Positions 25,017-41,524 are shown, counted from the first letter of the stretch. The stretch is 64,000 nucleotides of DNA from Methanimicrococcus sp. (GCA_034006575.1 JAVESN010000001.1:6233-70232), one strand, 5' to 3'. Numbers and translations: made by a program. The notes: a model not told the origin generated them from the sequence alone.

Positions 25017-25886
25017 TTAAATATCCATGCTTCCGCTTTTAAACCCTTCCAAATCCAAAGTCACATAAGAAAATCCGTTTCGCTTTAAAAAATCAATCAA
25101 CTCATCCAGACACATTTGATTTTTCTTTTTTAAGAACAACTTCATTTCTTTTTTATCGACTTCAATTCGCGCGATTTTTCGGCCGGCGCCGTCGGCGTGG
25201 CAGCGAATTCGGATTTGTTTGGCGCCGATTCTTGCCGGGATTTTTTCTGCGTCCGCAATCCCTTTTAAAAGAGAGGGCGAAAGAGGCGTATCATATGAAA
25301 ACCGCGTTGCCAAACAGGACATGGACGGTTTGTCGGCAACAGACAGCTTTCTTTTTTTTGCCATTTTTCGGACTTCTTCTTTTTTTATTTTTAAATCCGC
25401 CAGAGGCGTTTTTACTTTCGCGCCCGCCTTTTCTTTTTCCTGTTTTCTTTTTTGCTCGGCGATAAATAAAAATCCGGGGCGCGGGATCTCATCGGATTCG
25501 CTCAACAATCGATCCGAATCATTCGTTCCCTCTACGACGGTTTCAAATCCGTTTTCATCGGCGTATTTCAAAAGGGCGGCGATGATTTCTTTTTTGCAGG
25601 CATAACAGCGATTTTTTTGATTCATGCGAATTTCGGGAATCTCCAATATCTTTTTTTCAAGAATGATGTGTTTGATTCCGATTTCTTTGGCCGTTTTTTT
25701 CGCGTTTTTGATTTCCGCTTCCGCTGTCAACTCCGTTTGAATCGTGACGGCAATCGCATCGGATCCCAATTTGTCAAAAGCGATCGCTGCCAAAAGTGAA
25801 CTGTCCGCACCACCCGAAAAAGCGACAACGACCCTTTTATTCTCTTTAAAAAATGTTTCCATTTTTTTTTCTTTTTTTGAAATCAT
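25017..25886 (-). CDS. larE: ATP-dependent sacrificial sulfur transferase LarE family
   Basis: AFSGGADS PP-loop, RCYACK, EGTNDSD, RPG, SCLATR, VTLDLEGFKSGSM. Confidence 0.88.
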   Translation of the reverse strand: MISKKEKKMETFFKENKRVVVAFSGGADSSLLAAIAFDKLGSDAIAVTIQTELTAEAEIKNAKKTAKEIGIKHIILEKKILEIPEIRMNQKNRCYACKKEIIAALLKYADENGFETVVEGTNDSDRLLSESDEIPRPGFLFIAEQKRKQEKEKAGAKVKTPLADLKIKKEEVRKMAKKRKLSVADKPSMSCLATRFSYDTPLSPSLLKGIADAEKIPARIGAKQIRIRCHADGAGRKIARIEVDKKEMKLFLKKKNQMCLDELIDFLKRNGFSYVTLDLEGFKSGSMDI

Positions 25887-32251: not shown

Positions 32252-33640
32252 ATGTCGCTTGCCGTTTCGATTCTTTTTTTCGTTTTGCTGTTGATTATTG
32301 TTCGAAAAATCGGCCCGTATCATTTTCCAATGTGGGCGTCCATGACGTTTGGCGCGCTCGCCGTTCTTTTGTTCAAACAAATCTCTTTTTCAGAGGCTTT
32401 TGACGCGATTTCATGGGACGTTATTTTCTTCCTCTTTGGAATGTTTGTCGTCGGCGCCGCCATTGATCTTTCGGGTATTTTAAACCGTTTTGTCTCAAAG
32501 AGCGTTGAAAAGTATCCGTCGGCAAATTCTTTTCTTTTCTTTTTCATTTTTTTTGCCGGATTTCTATCCGCTCTGCTCATGAATGACACCGTCGCCGTGA
32601 TTCTCACGCCGTTTGCAATCCGTTGCGCCCGCCTTAACAAAATTCCGTCCAAAATTCTGCTGTTCGCGCTGGCGGCTTCCGTGACGACGGGATGTTTACT
32701 CTCCCCCGTCGGCGCGCCCCCAAACTTAATCATCGCAACGCACGCTTTTAACGGGTCGTTTATCCCGTTTTTCGTTTATTTGGCAGTTCCGGCCCTGTTG
32801 AGCCTTTTGGCTTTGTATTTTTATCTCAGGATGCGGATGAAATCCGACAAACGCAAAAATTTAAACAAAACCGATATTAACAAAACCAATAATTTAAACA
32901 AAACCGATATTAACAAAACCAATAATTTAAACAAAATCAATAATTTAAACAAAATCAATAATTTAAACAAAACAGAATATATAAAATCAAATCCAAACGA
33001 AACGGATTATTTTTCTCCCTGCCCCGTTTTGGAAACCGAGAAAGACCCGGCTCTTTGCCGACTCACCCTTCTTTCACTTTCGCTCATCGTTCTTTTAATC
33101 TTATCTTCCGTCTTTTTCTCCCTCTTTTGGAAACCGATTCCGCTCGTTTTGATTTCCTTTGCCGGCGCTTTTTTGCTTTTGTTTTTTTCCAAAAGAAGAA
33201 TGGAATTGCTTCAAAAAACAGATTGGAAAACGCTTTTGTTTTTCGTTTCCATGTTTGTTTTAATCAAAGCCGTCCACATAACCGGATTTTTCCAAAATCA
33301 CATCCCGGAAAGCTTTGATTCGTCTCTTCCCGTTTTGTATTCCGTAAGCCTGATTCTCAGCCAATTCATATCCAACGTGCCGTACGTTTCCTTAGCGCTC
33401 CCTTTTTTGGAAACGGCAGAGCCCGTATATTACATGACGTTGCTTGCCGGAAGCACGATTGCCGGCAATTTGACAATATTTGGCGCGGCCAGCAACGTTA
33501 TTATCATACAAAACGCCGAAAAATCCGGAGAAACGCTCACCTTCTTCGAGTTTTTTAAATTCGGGGCACCGATTGTTTTGATTCAATCTTTTATATTTTT
33601 AAGTTGGTTGCTTTTCATTTTTATATTAAGAGCGGTTTGA
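32252..33640 (+). CDS. ArsB/NhaD/SLC13-type anion permease
   Basis: SALLMNDT, SPVGAPPNL, ISNVP, AGNLTIFGAASNVII; many hydrophobic helices. Confidence 0.88.
   Translation: MSLAVSILFFVLLLIIVRKIGPYHFPMWASMTFGALAVLLFKQISFSEAFDAISWDVIFFLFGMFVVGAAIDLSGILNRFVSKSVEKYPSANSFLFFFIFFAGFLSALLMNDTVAVILTPFAIRCARLNKIPSKILLFALAASVTTGCLLSPVGAPPNLIIATHAFNGSFIPFFVYLAVPALLSLLALYFYLRMRMKSDKRKNLNKTDINKTNNLNKTDINKTNNLNKINNLNKINNLNKTEYIKSNPNETDYFSPCPVLETEKDPALCRLTLLSLSLIVLLILSSVFFSLFWKPIPLVLISFAGAFLLLFFSKRRMELLQKTDWKTLLFFVSMFVLIKAVHITGFFQNHIPESFDSSLPVLYSVSLILSQFISNVPYVSLALPFLETAEPVYYMTLLAGSTIAGNLTIFGAASNVIIIQNAEKSGETLTFFEFFKFGAPIVLIQSFIFLSWLLFIFILRAV
32857..32975. repeat. In-frame 33/18-bp repeats encoding an Asn/Lys-rich loop (NLNKTDINKTN, NLNKIN)
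   Basis: Direct inspection. Confidence 0.9.
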
Positions 33641-35133: not shown

Positions 35134-35151
35134 TTTAATCCCCTTTTTTTG

Positions 35152-35225
35152 TTATTTTAAATATTTTGATTATTTTGATTATTTTGATTATTTTAATTAT
35201 TTTGAATATTTTAATTATTTTGATA
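35152..35225. repeat. 9-bp tandem repeat attttgatt x~8
   Basis: Direct inspection. Confidence 0.8.
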
Positions 35226-35366
35226 GATTATTTTGTTATTTTGACAAAACCTTCATGATTTATAATCTATTCTGTTTTTTAATTTTTTATTTCATAATGG
35301 TAGATTTTTTAAATAGGGTACACCGTTATAATCCGCATGAATATATTTGTGTTAAGGGGTAAATAA

Positions 35367-35648
35367 ATGATTCCGAATGAAAAAATAGCCGAAATCGCCT
35401 GGGCCGCGCGAATCGCGGTGGACGAAAAAGATCTTCCCGAATTTCAAAAAAAAATCAACGGCAAACTGGATTTTTATGCCGTCATTCAAGACGCACCGAC
35501 AGAAAATGTTAAAAAAACAGTCAACCCGTCGCGTTTGAATACGGTTCTTCGAAAAGATATCGTTTCACCGTCTATGAAAACGGAGGACGCTCTTAAAAAC
35601 GCGCCGGAAGTTCATGAAACGTCTTTTAAAATTCCAAAGATATTATAA
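35367..35648 (+). CDS. gatC: Asp/Glu-tRNA amidotransferase subunit C
   Basis: Size, position before gatA, LRKD...ALKNAP...FKIPKIL. Confidence 0.85.
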   Translation: MIPNEKIAEIAWAARIAVDEKDLPEFQKKINGKLDFYAVIQDAPTENVKKTVNPSRLNTVLRKDIVSPSMKTEDALKNAPEVHETSFKIPKIL

Positions 35649-35686
35649 GATGTCGGCAAAAATTAAATTTTATTTTGAGGGAAAAC

Positions 35687-37057
35687 ATGGTTCAAACAAT
35701 TAAAGATTTTCAAGCCGCCGGGGAAAAAGCGGTGGCAAAAAGTCTGAATAAAATGAAAAAAGAAGACTTCGGAATTTTTGCAACGATTTGCGAAAATGCA
35801 AAACCCGTCGGCTCCGGCTCTTTATCCGGCGTTCCGATTGTCCTTTCCGACAACATTTCTTTAAAAGATATTGAGACGACTTGCCGTTCTCAAATATTAA
35901 AAGGATACATTCCGCCCTTTGACGGAGCCGCCGTTGAAAAACTTAAAAACGCCGGCGCTGTTTTAATCGGTAAAACAAACATGGCGGAATTCGGCATTCT
36001 CGGCGCCGCAAGCACATGCGGTCCCGTTTCCAATCCGTTGGACAAAACGAAAAAAGGCGGACCGAGCGGATCGGCCGCCGCCGTATCTTCCGGAATCGTT
36101 CCGGCCGCCGTCTGTTCGGATGCCGGCGGTCTTTTAAGAGTTTCAGCGTCTTACTGCGGAACCGTTTCTTTTAAACCGAGTTACGGCGCCGTTTCCAGAT
36201 ACGGTTTGATTTATTACGCCGGCTCCTTGGAACAAATCGGCGTCACCGCGTCAACCGTCTCAGACGTTGTTGCCGTTTTAGACGTTCTTTCCGGACACGA
36301 TGCGCGCGACACGACTTCGTTGCCGGAAAAAATCAATTACTCGGCGAAAATCAAATCCGGCGACAAACCTTTAACCGGATTTAAAATCGGCATTCCGCTC
36401 GAATTCTTAGAAGATGTCGACACGAGTGTTTTAAGAACTTTTGAAGAATCCGTCGCCGTTTTTGAAAAACTCGGCGCGGTTTGTGAAAAAATATCCTTAA
36501 AAACCGCTTCATGGATGCAGCCCGTTCACGACATTATCGCCGCGGGCGAAAGTTCGGCCATGCTTTCTCGGTACGACGGCACACGATTCGGGCCGCGCGC
36601 AAAAGCCGACAACTGGCATGACATGGTTGCCCAAACAAGAGCGCTTTTCGGTCCCGTGGTTCAAAGACGAATCATGCTCGGCGTTCACTTGCTGACCACC
36701 GGGCAGTATCAGGATTATTATATGAAATCCCTTCAAATTCGAACATTGATTGTCGATGAATTCGATTCCGTTTTCAACAATTACGACCTCCTCATTTCTC
36801 CGACCACGAACACGGTCGCACCCGACTTAAACGGTGTTTGTGTCGGCGGATGCGGGTTTGAACTCAGCTCGTATTCGGCCGCGATGGCCGGAACCGATTT
36901 GGCGGGTCTGCCGGTCGCCACCGTTCCGTGCGGCAACATCGGACATCTTCCGGTCGGCCTTCAAATGATGAGCGGTTATTTGATGGATGAAAACGTGATT
37001 GCCGCGGCGGACGCGTTTGAAAAGGCGATCGATTTCGTTCTTCCGGAGGCGGTTTGA
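35687..37057 (+). CDS. gatA: Asp/Glu-tRNA amidotransferase subunit A (amidase-signature catalytic residues substituted)
   Basis: GKTNM.EF, KPSYGAVSRYGL, LSRYDG.RFG, RRIMLG; between gatC and gatB; KDNI->SDNI and DTGGSIR->DAGGLLR. Confidence 0.9.
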   Translation: MVQTIKDFQAAGEKAVAKSLNKMKKEDFGIFATICENAKPVGSGSLSGVPIVLSDNISLKDIETTCRSQILKGYIPPFDGAAVEKLKNAGAVLIGKTNMAEFGILGAASTCGPVSNPLDKTKKGGPSGSAAAVSSGIVPAAVCSDAGGLLRVSASYCGTVSFKPSYGAVSRYGLIYYAGSLEQIGVTASTVSDVVAVLDVLSGHDARDTTSLPEKINYSAKIKSGDKPLTGFKIGIPLEFLEDVDTSVLRTFEESVAVFEKLGAVCEKISLKTASWMQPVHDIIAAGESSAMLSRYDGTRFGPRAKADNWHDMVAQTRALFGPVVQRRIMLGVHLLTTGQYQDYYMKSLQIRTLIVDEFDSVFNNYDLLISPTTNTVAPDLNGVCVGGCGFELSSYSAAMAGTDLAGLPVATVPCGNIGHLPVGLQMMSGYLMDENVIAAADAFEKAIDFVLPEAV

Positions 37058-38503
37058 ATGGTTTATGAAAATCCGGACCAAGTCATGGTCGGCCTTGAGA
37101 TTCACGTTCAGTTGAACAAAGCGAACACCAAAATGTTTTGCGGATGCACGACCGATTACACGGACGAGGCCGCAAACACCTGCCTTTGCCCGAGCTGTAT
37201 GGCGCTTCCCGGAACGACGCCGGTTTTGAATGAGAAATGCGTCGATTACGCGATTAAAATCGGTTTGGCTTTAAATTCCGAAATCGAAAACGAAACCGAT
37301 TTTTTCATGAAAAATTATTTCTATCCCGACCTCGGAAACGGTTACCAGGTGACTCAATTTGATAAACCGATCGTGAAAGGCGGATATGTCGTCATCGAAG
37401 GAGAAGACGGGGAATTAAAAGTTCGAATCAACCGCGCGCACATGGAAGACGATCCCGGAAAAATGGTTCACATCGGGTCGATTGCCAAATCCGCCGGCAG
37501 CTTGATTGACTTTAACCGCTCCGGGATGCCGCTTGTTGAAATCGTCACGGAGCCCGATATGCGCTCGGCAAAAGAAGCGCGCCGCTTTTTGGACAAGCTT
37601 CGAAGCATTTTGGAATATTTGGACGTTTTTGACGGCTCGCGCGAAGGCGCAATGAAGGCGGACGCCAACATTTCCGTCAACAGCTTTAACGGCAAGCGCA
37701 TCAACGGAACGCGCGTTGAAGTGAAAAACATCTCCTCTCACAAAGCCGTTGAGAAAGCCATCAATTACGAAATCATGCGGCAAAAAGACGCGCTTCGAAA
37801 GGGCAAAACGCTGATTCAAGAGACGCGGCATTATGACGAAGACAGAAACGTGACAATCAGTCTGCGTGCCAAAGAAACGGCGGACGACTATCGTTATTTC
37901 CCGGACTTTGATTTGGTGCCGTATGTGGTCGGCGATCGCGTCAAAGGCATTCGCGCAACCCTGCCGGAACTTCCCGACGCCAAACGCGACCGTTTTGTCA
38001 AAGAATATGACATTTCAGACGCGCACGCGAAAAGTTTGGTGACGGAGCGGGCCTTTGCGGATCTCTTTGAAAATGTCGCATCCAAAGTCGATCCGAAATC
38101 GGCGGCTTCTTGGGTAGCCGATATCGTCAAAGGGGAATTGAATTATCGCGATTTGCCGGTCACAACGATTTCCGCAGAAGACATCGTCTCGGTCATTTTA
38201 ATGGTTTCTCAAAAAGAAATCAGTGAAGAGAGCGGAGTTTTCATCATCCGCACGCTTTTAGACGACGGCGGAAAACCGGCGGACATCGTTAAAGAAAAAG
38301 GGTTGGCCATGGTCGCCGATGACTTTATCGCCGCCGCCGCAAAAGAAGCGATTGCCGAAAACCCCGACGCCGTTTCGGATTATAAAGCCGGAACGGAAAA
38401 AGCCTTGAACTTCATCGTCGGAAAAGTGATGCAAAAGTCCAAAGGAAAAGCGGACGCGCGACTCGCGCGTGAAATGGTTCTCAAAGAGTTGGAAAATTCA
38501 TAA
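37058..38503 (+). CDS. gatB: Asp/Glu-tRNA amidotransferase subunit B
   Basis: GLEIHVQL, KNYFYPD, DFNRSG.PLVEIVTEPD, DANISV, EVKN, DYRYFP, YqeY tail. Confidence 0.95.
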   Translation: MVYENPDQVMVGLEIHVQLNKANTKMFCGCTTDYTDEAANTCLCPSCMALPGTTPVLNEKCVDYAIKIGLALNSEIENETDFFMKNYFYPDLGNGYQVTQFDKPIVKGGYVVIEGEDGELKVRINRAHMEDDPGKMVHIGSIAKSAGSLIDFNRSGMPLVEIVTEPDMRSAKEARRFLDKLRSILEYLDVFDGSREGAMKADANISVNSFNGKRINGTRVEVKNISSHKAVEKAINYEIMRQKDALRKGKTLIQETRHYDEDRNVTISLRAKETADDYRYFPDFDLVPYVVGDRVKGIRATLPELPDAKRDRFVKEYDISDAHAKSLVTERAFADLFENVASKVDPKSAASWVADIVKGELNYRDLPVTTISAEDIVSVILMVSQKEISEESGVFIIRTLLDDGGKPADIVKEKGLAMVADDFIAAAAKEAIAENPDAVSDYKAGTEKALNFIVGKVMQKSKGKADARLAREMVLKELENS

Positions 38504-38540
38504 CAACGGATTTTAATGAATAAATCGGCTCGACCGGTTT

Positions 38541-38735
38541 ATTTATTTTTTATTTTATTCCGGTTTCTTGTATTTTTTTCGTTTTTTTTTATTTTATTCC
38601 GGTTTTTTGTATTTTTTTCGTTTTTTTTATTTTATTCCGGTTTTTTGTATTTTTTTCGTTTTTTTTATTTTATTCCGGTTTCTTGTATTTTTTCGTTTTT
38701 TTTATTTTATTCCGGTTCTTGTATTTTTTTCGTTT
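38541..38735. repeat. ~37-39-bp T-rich tandem repeat x5
   Basis: ttattttattccggtt(t/c)ttgtatttttt(t)cgttttt units with no spacers. Confidence 0.85.
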
Positions 38736-38950
38736 TTTTGATTTATTTTTCTCTTTCAATTTCGTTTTTTATATTTTCATTTCTTTATTTTTTTTGATAT
38801 GATTTATTTATATAATCCCTCGTCTTTCTTTATTATGTTTCATAAACGCTGTTTATTTTATCGGCGTTTGGCGTTTATTTTTATTGTATTCTTACTTGTA
38901 ATGATTCTAATAATATTCATGTATATCTCAACTGTAAAGGAGTTAAAAAT

Positions 38951-39499
38951 ATGGATTTCTTTAAATCATGCAGAATCTTTCTGCTCCTTTCCGGTCTTTT
39001 AATGACCCTTTTAGGCATTGTTGTTATTTTTACGCCGTATGAAAGTTTGGTGGCGCTCACTCTTATCCTCGGGCTCTTGCTACTCTTTTCCGGCCTTTCC
39101 GAAATATTGATATTTATCGATCAAGGAAAAGACGAGCGTTCCGGTTGGTGGTTAGCCGGCGGCATTCTCTCTTTAATAATCGGTATTTGGATTTTGTTCG
39201 GGCGCGGCAGTGACGCTTTATTGGCTTTTATTCCGACCGTGTTCGCCGTTTGGGTTTTATTTTCCGGTATTTTGCGTGTCGTCGGTTCTTTATCCCTGCG
39301 CTCCTACGGTGTCAAATATTGGTGGCTTTCAACAATATTGGGCCTTCTTTATTCCATTGCCGGATTTGCTTTGTTGTTTATGCCCCTCTTATCTTCCATG
39401 CTTGTCGTTTACACGATTGCGATTTCATTGATTCTTTACGGCATTACCAATGTTGTGATTTATTGGAATTTAAGAAAAATTGTCAAAGCGCTTGAATAA
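38951..39499 (+). CDS. HdeD/DUF308 family membrane protein
   Basis: Six hydrophobic segments with repeated G..ll.G pattern and GWW/WW motifs. Confidence 0.8.
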   Translation: MDFFKSCRIFLLLSGLLMTLLGIVVIFTPYESLVALTLILGLLLLFSGLSEILIFIDQGKDERSGWWLAGGILSLIIGIWILFGRGSDALLAFIPTVFAVWVLFSGILRVVGSLSLRSYGVKYWWLSTILGLLYSIAGFALLFMPLLSSMLVVYTIAISLILYGITNVVIYWNLRKIVKALE

Positions 39500-40219: not shown

Positions 40220-41524
40220 GTGTCTGACACAGTAGATATCTACAGCGATAGAGGACAACTCTTAGAGAGCAATGTAAACATAAGAGACCTTGCTCCCGTC
40301 AAAAACAAGGCCATCCAAAAAATCATTATGGATACCAAACGTTCAGTTGCCGTTAACCTCGCCGGTATTGAGAAATCACTCGCAACCGGTAAAATGGGCG
40401 GCGCTGCAAAGCAAATTCTCGGACGCAAACTTGAGTACAACTTGGTTGAAAACTCAGGCGCAATCGTTGATGCCGTTAAAAAATTGGTTCAAGTCGACGA
40501 AGGCGACGACACCGTTGTCAAACCCTTGGCAGGCGGCAAACAAATTCTGATTCAAATCCCGACAGCACGTTTGATGTCCGGCGCAGAATCCACAGCTTCC
40601 ATGACAGTCAGCGCAGCAGCGATGACCCAAGCGATTCTTGACATATACAACACTGACATGTACGACTCCATGATCGTCAAAGCCGCCTGCTGGGGCAGCT
40701 ACCCGGTCACCGTCGGTATGGCAGGAAGTCCGATTAAAGGAATTCTCGACATCCCCCAAAACAACGAGGGTCTCGGTTATTCACTTCGAAACATCACATC
40801 CAACCACGTGGCAGCCATTACCAAAAGAAACGCGATGAACGCAGCCGCTTTGTCTTCAATTTATGAGCAAACCGGTATCTTTGAAATGGGCGGCGCAATC
40901 GGTGACTTTGAAAGACACCAGCTTCTCGGCTTGGCTTACCAAGGCTTAAACGCCAACAACATGGTCTACGAAATGGTTAAAGAGAACGGCAAAAGCGGAA
41001 CCGTCGGATCCGTTATCGAAACACTCGTCAACAAAGCCATCGAAGACAAAGTTATTCACGTTGATAAAACAGGCGCATCCGGCTACAACTTCTACAAAGC
41101 AGACGATGTCGCCAAATGGAACGCATACACAGCAGCCGGCACACTTGCGGCGACAATGGTGAACTGCGGCGCATCCCGCGCGGCACAAGACGTTGCGGCA
41201 ACAATGCTTTACTTCAACGACATCCTCGAAAAAGAAACAGGCCTTCCGGGCTGTGACTACGGTAAGCTCCAGGGCGCATCCGTCGGCTTCTCTTTCTTCA
41301 GCCACTCCATTTACGGCGGCGGCGGACCCGGTATCTTTAACGGAAACCACGTTGTTACAAGACACTCCAGAGGATTCGCTATTCCTTGTGTCGCAGCAGC
41401 CGTTTCTCTTGACGCAGGAACTCAAATGTTCACAATCGAATCGACCTCTGCAATTATCGGAGACGTTTTCGGAACCATCGAAGAGTTCAGAGAACCGATT
41501 AAAGCCGTTGCAGGAGCCCTCTAA
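40220..41524 (+). CDS. mcrB: Methyl-coenzyme M reductase beta subunit
   Basis: FFSHSIYGGGGPGIFNGNHVVTRHSRG; GTG start. Confidence 0.99.
   Translation: MSDTVDIYSDRGQLLESNVNIRDLAPVKNKAIQKIIMDTKRSVAVNLAGIEKSLATGKMGGAAKQILGRKLEYNLVENSGAIVDAVKKLVQVDEGDDTVVKPLAGGKQILIQIPTARLMSGAESTASMTVSAAAMTQAILDIYNTDMYDSMIVKAACWGSYPVTVGMAGSPIKGILDIPQNNEGLGYSLRNITSNHVAAITKRNAMNAAALSSIYEQTGIFEMGGAIGDFERHQLLGLAYQGLNANNMVYEMVKENGKSGTVGSVIETLVNKAIEDKVIHVDKTGASGYNFYKADDVAKWNAYTAAGTLAATMVNCGASRAAQDVAATMLYFNDILEKETGLPGCDYGKLQGASVGFSFFSHSIYGGGGPGIFNGNHVVTRHSRGFAIPCVAAAVSLDAGTQMFTIESTSAIIGDVFGTIEEFREPIKAVAGAL

Follow-up and report, generated by a model that had tools for sequence, protein, structure and literature searches.

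A GatA subunit without its glutaminase active site is conserved in the only visible Asn-tRNA(Asn) route of Methanimicrococcus and its relatives

GatCAB is portrayed in reviews as dependent on glutamine, with a gated tunnel that couples its glutaminase to a tRNA-dependent kinase (PMC2330236). For the yeast enzyme GatFAB, the glutaminase step has been bypassed in vitro by ammonium chloride (PMC4027206). Here we analyze a 64,000-nucleotide stretch of DNA from a Methanimicrococcus sp. metagenome-assembled genome (MAG), which we call the window and to which all positions refer, and within it a gatC-gatA-gatB locus whose GatA lacks the residues required for glutamine hydrolysis. The window lies on contig C44 of the 1.68-Mb MAG, which comprises 132 contigs and is rated 82% complete. 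Both ammonia-dependent and glutamine-dependent forms exist among the NadE NAD+ synthetases, and the asparagine synthetases AsnA and AsnB differ in the same way.

The locus resembles canonical and archaeal GatCAB systems in its operon order, in the folds of its subunits, and in a GatB that has all kinase and transamidase motifs. Also as in archaeal systems, the genome has an aspartyl-tRNA synthetase (AspRS) of the non-discriminating type, tRNA-Asn, no asparaginyl-tRNA synthetase (AsnRS), and GatDE for glutamine. The difference lies in GatA, which is without Lys79, cis-Ser154, Ser178, Tyr309, and Asp425 of the canonical enzyme and falls below the equivalog cut-off. The GatFAB bypass is similar to the natural mode that we propose here, as GatB chemistry would run on free ammonia, but it is a laboratory condition in an enzyme with a working glutaminase, whereas here it would be the only mode and evolutionarily fixed. 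Ammonia-dependent NadE and AsnA are likewise synthetases that use free ammonia instead of a coupled glutaminase; they have no glutaminase domain, whereas a full-length, empty glutaminase subunit is kept under selection here. Another GatA-like amidase-signature protein whose relevance is in binding rather than glutamine hydrolysis is the Pseudomonas aeruginosa type VI effector Tse8, which presumably acts on the transamidosome. Unlike GatA here, Tse8 (PDB 6TE4) is a toxin from another cell, is distant (E value 1e-8), and lies outside any gatCAB operon.

We aligned the predicted GatA with that of Staphylococcus aureus (2df4_A; phmmer E value 1e-84, residues 38-437 against 63-464), and residue numbers for lost positions follow the S. 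aureus protein. The whole catalytic triad is replaced, each replacement being on the + strand and supported by alignment and a codon check. Ser54 (TCC, 35846-35848) takes the place of the catalytic Lys79, where PIVLSDNI aligns with GIKDNI. Pro126 (CCG, 36062-36064) replaces the catalytic cis-Ser154, and the surrounding GGPSGS motif is one residue shorter than the GGSSGGS of S. aureus. The nucleophile Ser178 is replaced by Leu149 (CTT, 36131-36133), with SDAGGLLR in the place of SDTGGSIR. By the same alignment and codon check, Ala100 (GCG, 35984-35986, + strand) replaces Asp125 of the NMDEF motif (TNMAEF on LNMDEF). These motif changes, with positions for the codons at the Lys79 and Ser178 sites, had been reported in a first-pass annotation of this DNA, and all of them are correct. 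With proline at the cis-Ser154 position, the signature loop would keep its backbone, as proline readily adopts a cis peptide bond.

The glutamine-binding pocket is also largely replaced, based on alignments. His281 and Asp282 (36527-36532, + strand; the His281 codon is CAC at 36527) stand where the pocket has Tyr309 and Tyr310. The loop that carries the glutamine-binding Asp425 is replaced by a remodelled C-V-G-G-C...S-S-Y-S segment (36839-36871, + strand). This C-x-G-G-C segment is two residues longer than the loop of other archaeal GatA proteins, and the Asp425 site has no Asp, with Ser395 at that position in a MAFFT alignment. The glutamine-binding Arg358 is retained in this GatA and is Lys or Glu in some members of the clade described below.

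The frame is full length, and the structural motifs KPSYGAVSRYGL, RYDGTRFG, and RRIMLG are present. The amidase-signature fold is recognized by the Pfam Amidase model (295.7 bits across residues 43-437). An AlphaFold model of GatA has a predicted template modelling (TM) score of 0.80 and a mean predicted local distance difference test score of 71, and it matches GatA structures with TM scores of 0.78-0.82; it is a moderate model, built from a shallow 28-sequence alignment. Together with purifying selection and clade-wide conservation of the substituted residues (below), these features bear out the proposal of the first-pass annotation that the active site was lost selectively and that the gene is not decaying. 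The protein scores 383.6 bits against the NCBIfam GatA equivalog TIGR00132, under the cut-off of 481.1, and several orthologues are named merely "amidase family protein" by NCBI. Because of the residue losses and the score below the cut-off, this GatA cannot be the glutamine- or asparagine-hydrolyzing subunit that defines the known enzyme. The Ser-cisSer-Lys triad of amidase-signature enzymes is absent from it and from GatA across the clade, and it cannot be an amidase-signature glutaminase. The sequence predicts that glutamine- or asparagine-dependent transamidation by GatCAB is absent. GatA is thus a conserved pseudoenzyme, with the triad lost, the frame intact, purifying selection, and conservation across species.

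The same state extends through a clade made up of Methanimicrococcus, Methanolapillus, "Methanosarcinaceae archaeon Ag5", and two deeper MAG proteins (P0032 and P0033). We aligned 24 sequences at first and then 28 clade members (45-73% identity), and the triad is absent in 28 of 28, so the substitutions listed for this GatA are shared by its relatives. The Lys79 position is Ser in 27 of the 28 and Ala in one, the cis-Ser154 position is invariably Pro, and the Ser178 position is Leu, Ile, or Ala. The top GatA matches (66-72% identity) belong to Methanimicrococcus stummii, to M. hongohii, and to related MAGs, which places the organism in Methanimicrococcus (Methanosarcinaceae). Both named species were isolated in pure culture, as were the Methanolapillus species (PMC11362671). 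A normal triad is found in Methanococcoides, Methanohalophilus, Methanolobus, Methanohalobium, Methanoperedens, Methanothrix, and Archaeoglobi, and the remaining sampled genera of the family (one genome each) have normal GatA motifs.

The dead GatA proteins are monophyletic in a quick GatA tree, with a Shimodaira-Hasegawa-like approximate likelihood ratio test (SH-aLRT) support of 100, and two branch segments that total about 1.3 changes per site separate them from the normal ones. The genomes that encode them are monophyletic in the GatB tree as well (SH-aLRT 100). The agreement of the two trees indicates that the GatA change happened once, in place. Horizontal acquisition from a bacterial family of dead GatA proteins was considered and rejected, since beyond the clade the top matches are to normal archaeal GatA proteins of the Methanosarcinales (40-48% identity).

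We compared rates of change for pairs with a synonymous divergence (dS) of 0.6-1.2. The ratio of nonsynonymous to synonymous divergence (dN/dS) is 0.08-0.16 for gatA and 0.07-0.17 for gatC; for gatB it is 0.02-0.05 in the four closest pairs and up to 0.08 overall. The amino acid divergence of GatA relative to GatB is about 2.1 in the dead-GatA clade versus about 1.0 in eight normal genera, and relative to GatD it is 1.23 versus 0.77. Of the columns that are invariant in the normal genera, the clade has changed 48% in GatA and 64% in GatC, compared with 19% in GatB and 30% in GatD. From these column counts and divergence ratios it follows that constraint on GatA and GatC is relaxed or redirected, while constraint on GatB stayed tight. 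General acceleration of the lineage was tried as an explanation and is only partly true: GatD is changed at 30% of these columns, but GatA is changed at more and GatB at fewer.

GatB, GatC, GatD, GatE, and AspRS look intact, and all exceed their equivalog cut-offs. GatB scores 596 and 538 bits with its two NCBIfam equivalogs. It retains the GLEIHVQL, HMEDDPGK, EIVTEPD, DANISV, and DYRYFP motifs, which are kept in all clade members, as well as the ATP and Mg motifs and the YqeY tail; residue roles were taken from PMC4027206 and PMC2330236. No other protein compared is as conserved as GatB, which is 84-88% identical within the genus. The only class-IIb synthetase of the genome is the non-discriminating AspRS (630 bits), and there are two tRNA-Asn(GUU) genes. 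The genome also has a tRNA-Pyl(CUA) gene, as expected for methylamine-using Methanosarcinaceae.

We searched for other sources of asparagine and of Asn-tRNA(Asn) in this MAG and in four closed, one-contig genomes (two Methanimicrococcus and two Methanolapillus). In each genome, the only amidase-family (PF01425) gene is that of the dead GatA, and the only asparaginase-family gene is that of GatD (equivalog 485 bits), which retains the TGGTIA and HGTDT motifs. AsnA was not found in these five genomes, nor was a real AsnB, the Asn_synthase model giving only weak PP-loop matches. The match in the window (25659-25838, - strand, in an open reading frame (ORF) of about 295 amino acids) is a LarE-type sacrificial sulfur transferase (233 bits) and is the only such match that we checked; all four closed relatives likewise have weak Asn_synthase matches about 8-11 kb from gatA. 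An AsnRS above the cut-off was found in 0 of 81 Methanosarcinaceae genomes, the four closed ones included. The first-pass annotation had named a second gatA, asnS, and gatDE as genes that would bear on its reading; neither of the first two was found in the MAG or the closed relatives, and gatDE is present and intact. The closed genomes score no higher than 80-82% complete, which makes the 82% of the MAG a property of the lineage and no sign of missing DNA. With no AsnRS, AsnA, real AsnB, or second amidase found, no route to Asn-tRNA(Asn) other than gatCAB is visible.

All five genomes encode glutamine synthetase, and four of them also encode an ammonium transporter. A shortage of glutamine as the reason for the GatA loss was rejected, given the glutamine synthetase in every genome. 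M. blatticola has lost asnB, nitrogenase, and P-II regulators (PMC9723798). GatA is not mentioned in that paper or in PMC11362671, and we found no published account of a glutaminase-dead GatA in Methanimicrococcus or of a GatCAB pseudoenzyme. What is new here is a selected, catalytically empty GatA in the sole visible Asn-tRNA route of an archaeal lineage.

We favor the reading, with a probability of roughly 55%, that GatB uses free ammonia for the amidation of Asp-tRNA(Asn), with GatA and GatC kept as a scaffold. The triad and most of the glutamine pocket were replaced in the common ancestor of Methanimicrococcus, Methanolapillus, and the deeper sister lineage, after which GatA evolved, relative to GatB, at about double the pace seen in other genera, under continued purifying selection. 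Since a non-discriminating AspRS and tRNA-Asn are present and no AsnRS, asparagine synthetase, or other amidase was found, GatB must still convert Asp-tRNA(Asn) to Asn-tRNA(Asn). It would phosphorylate the aspartyl side chain as usual, and the phosphoryl-Asp-tRNA(Asn) would then be amidated with cytoplasmic free ammonia or ammonium, which would enter directly or via the old glutamine pocket and tunnel. GatA and GatC may be retained because GatB needs both to fold, assemble, and bind tRNA, in line with the roles described for them in PMC2330236. An ammonia-dependent mechanism is probable, and a whole archaeal lineage appears to live on a GatCAB that is unable to hydrolyze glutamine and is needed for every Asn residue.

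Several observations weigh against this reading. The affinity of canonical GatCAB for ammonia is low. Glutamine was not generally abandoned as a nitrogen donor, since these cells have glutamine synthetase and their other tRNA-dependent glutaminase, GatD, retains its catalytic residues. The GatB loop beside RKNYFYPD, which we take to lie at the GatA-GatB interface, has clade-specific changes (R to M, P to G, and K to N or S). The old active-site loops of GatA are fixed in their new form and are not drifting (Pro126 and His281 are invariant, and Cys385 and Cys389 nearly so), and the fixed, rebuilt loops could reflect a new function rather than a mere scaffold.

The first-pass annotation had considered a supply of free ammonia plausible in an ammonium-rich gut. 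That setting does not hold up for this genome, as metagenomes from wastewater, landfill, and activated sludge contain DNA of the species. Such metagenomes, from at least nine studies, include at least 97% of the words sampled from the stretch (window 35300-38600); the species is represented almost completely in them and is thus not confined to animal guts like its named relatives. The closest named relatives are arthropod-gut isolates; a gut habitat for this species is not established. Landfill, wastewater, and sludge habitats are generally ammonium-rich. Contigs from digester and wastewater RNA libraries contain parts of the stretch, including parts of gatC, gatA, and gatB, and such contigs are no proof of transcription. 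Contigs of one DNA run (X2) cover almost none of the stretch. Codons 126 and 149 of gatA are unchanged in contigs from two metatranscriptome libraries, in which codon 54 is uncovered.

Another protein might supply the ammonia by docking on the dead GatA-GatB-GatC complex and feeding GatB, with GatD or a class-I glutamine amidotransferase subunit as candidates. GatD is intact in every dead-GatA genome, and the strong change in both GatA and GatC would be expected if they had to accommodate a new partner. We nevertheless consider this unlikely, as the sole asparaginase-family gene per genome belongs to the GatD equivalog, whose known partner is GatE, no extra gene was found in or beside the gatCAB operon in the window or in the loci of relatives, and a second amidase was not found. 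The rebuilt pocket of GatA itself (Pro126, His281, Ser153, and Cys385-x3-Cys389) may instead be a new functional site for ammonium capture or gating, for metal binding, or for catalysis with a different nitrogen donor, a suggestion that we regard as quite unlikely. If it is correct, this would be a natural re-engineering of the ammonia-tunnel entry in an essential translation enzyme. A narrower version, in which His281, Asp282, Ser153, Cys385-x3-Cys389, and Ser127 form a catalytic or ligand site for another donor or chemistry, seems to us distinctly doubtful. Consistent with re-tooling, the replaced positions are strongly conserved (Pro126, His281, Gly287, Ala291, and Met292 are invariant within the clade, at least 90% of its members have Cys385 and Cys389, and Ser153 is found in 12 of 12 members compared), and the burst on the stem branch was followed by purifying selection. 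It is difficult to reconcile with the lack of a universal candidate nucleophile, as Cys385 and Cys389 are absent from the deepest branch (P0032 and P0033) and Cys143 is limited to Methanimicrococcus. Moreover, no conserved residue nearby replaces the general base Lys, the residues for holding the substrate by its amino group and side chain are gone, and the roughly two-fold fall in overall constraint fits loss rather than change of function.

It is very improbable that GatCAB no longer makes Asn-tRNA, with an unrecognized route in its place, or Asn codons read with Asp, and another role for the operon. Nothing supports this directly, and the idea follows solely from the glutaminase loss, whereas GatB, including its tRNA-binding tail, is more constrained than any other protein compared, no AsnRS-like gene of any kind was found in the closed genomes, and Asn is normally encoded in the proteins read here. 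An artefact, whether a decaying pseudogene, a mis-assembly, or a contaminating contig, might be suspected from a MAG in so many contigs and of this nominal completeness. It is effectively refuted by the identical GatA protein on 18 contigs, by the same state in four closed isolate genomes of equally low score (PMC11362671), and by the intact frame with a dN/dS of about 0.1.

If the free-ammonia reading is correct, the clade is a natural experiment on what GatA and the tunnel do beyond catalysis, and translation in these methanogens would be linked directly to ammonium supply. The lineage includes pure cultures with closed genomes and thus offers a culturable system in which this is directly testable. 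Annotation is also affected, as automated pipelines give these proteins two names, GatA in some cases and "amidase family protein" in the rest.

The three genes are contiguous on the + strand (35367-38503, from ORFs and Pfam matches), and the gatC-gatA-gatB order is the same in the loci of 19 relatives. gatC (35367-35648, + strand) encodes 93 amino acids and is assigned by Pfam GatC (48 bits) and NCBIfam TIGR00135 (59.4 bits against a cut-off of 47.1), with GGGG upstream of its ATG. The glutaminase-dead gatA (35687-37057, + strand) is an open frame of 456 amino acids, identified by Pfam Amidase and the S. aureus GatA alignment. We place its start at the ATG at 35687, which has GAGGG 6 nucleotides upstream and at which the N-termini of relatives align; a TTG at 35675 was rejected as the start, as it merely gives the longest frame and the N-termini of relatives match the ATG instead. 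The apparently intact gatB (37058-38503, + strand; 481 amino acids; Pfam GatB_N 345 bits and GatB_Yqey 128 bits) begins immediately past the gatA stop codon. Just 3' of gatB is a terminator-like hairpin with a T run (38515-38547, + strand), identified by consensus match only. The mcr operon begins at 40220.

Upstream, a divergent, AT-rich intergenic region (35134-35366, no strand assigned; from sequence, ORFs, and Pfam) separates gatC from a DUF2114 (methanogenesis marker 14) gene. Tandem repeats of the GATTATTTT type fill this region 5' of gatC (35150-35245). Downstream of gatB, at 38516-39000, there are low-complexity frames rich in F and Y that are similar to those in the intergenic repeat region. 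Further upstream, an ORF at 32252-33640 resembles a membrane transporter and has an Asn-rich internal repeat (NLNKTDINKTN...) in a cytoplasmic loop, which is notable since the Asn supply of the organism depends on GatCAB.

A search with the clade profile returned other GatA-like proteins with altered triads. About 22 of the best 150 cluster representatives (50% identity clusters) have different triad substitutions, for example ADVFC, GGASGGS, and DAGGAVR. Based on these sequences, triad losses in GatA-like proteins seem to recur independently.

No archaeal gatCAB was found in G026, a MAG (65% complete) from the deepest genus with a dead GatA. One of its contigs (C162) has a bacterial-type operon that encodes a bacterial AspRS, a 400-amino-acid protein that resembles GatA but has no triad motifs, and a GatB that is only 37% identical to GatB here; this operon is either contamination or the result of gene transfer. 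Another contig (C53, L020:2497-4500) encodes a 667-amino-acid amidase, for which no counterpart was found in Methanimicrococcus or Methanolapillus. Its Lys/Ser/Ser motifs are intact, and its Pfam match is to Amidase only. The N-terminal extension of this protein looks GatC-like by eye, a KENGM tandem repeat is inserted in the middle of the protein, and the gene adjoins a TtuA-like gene.

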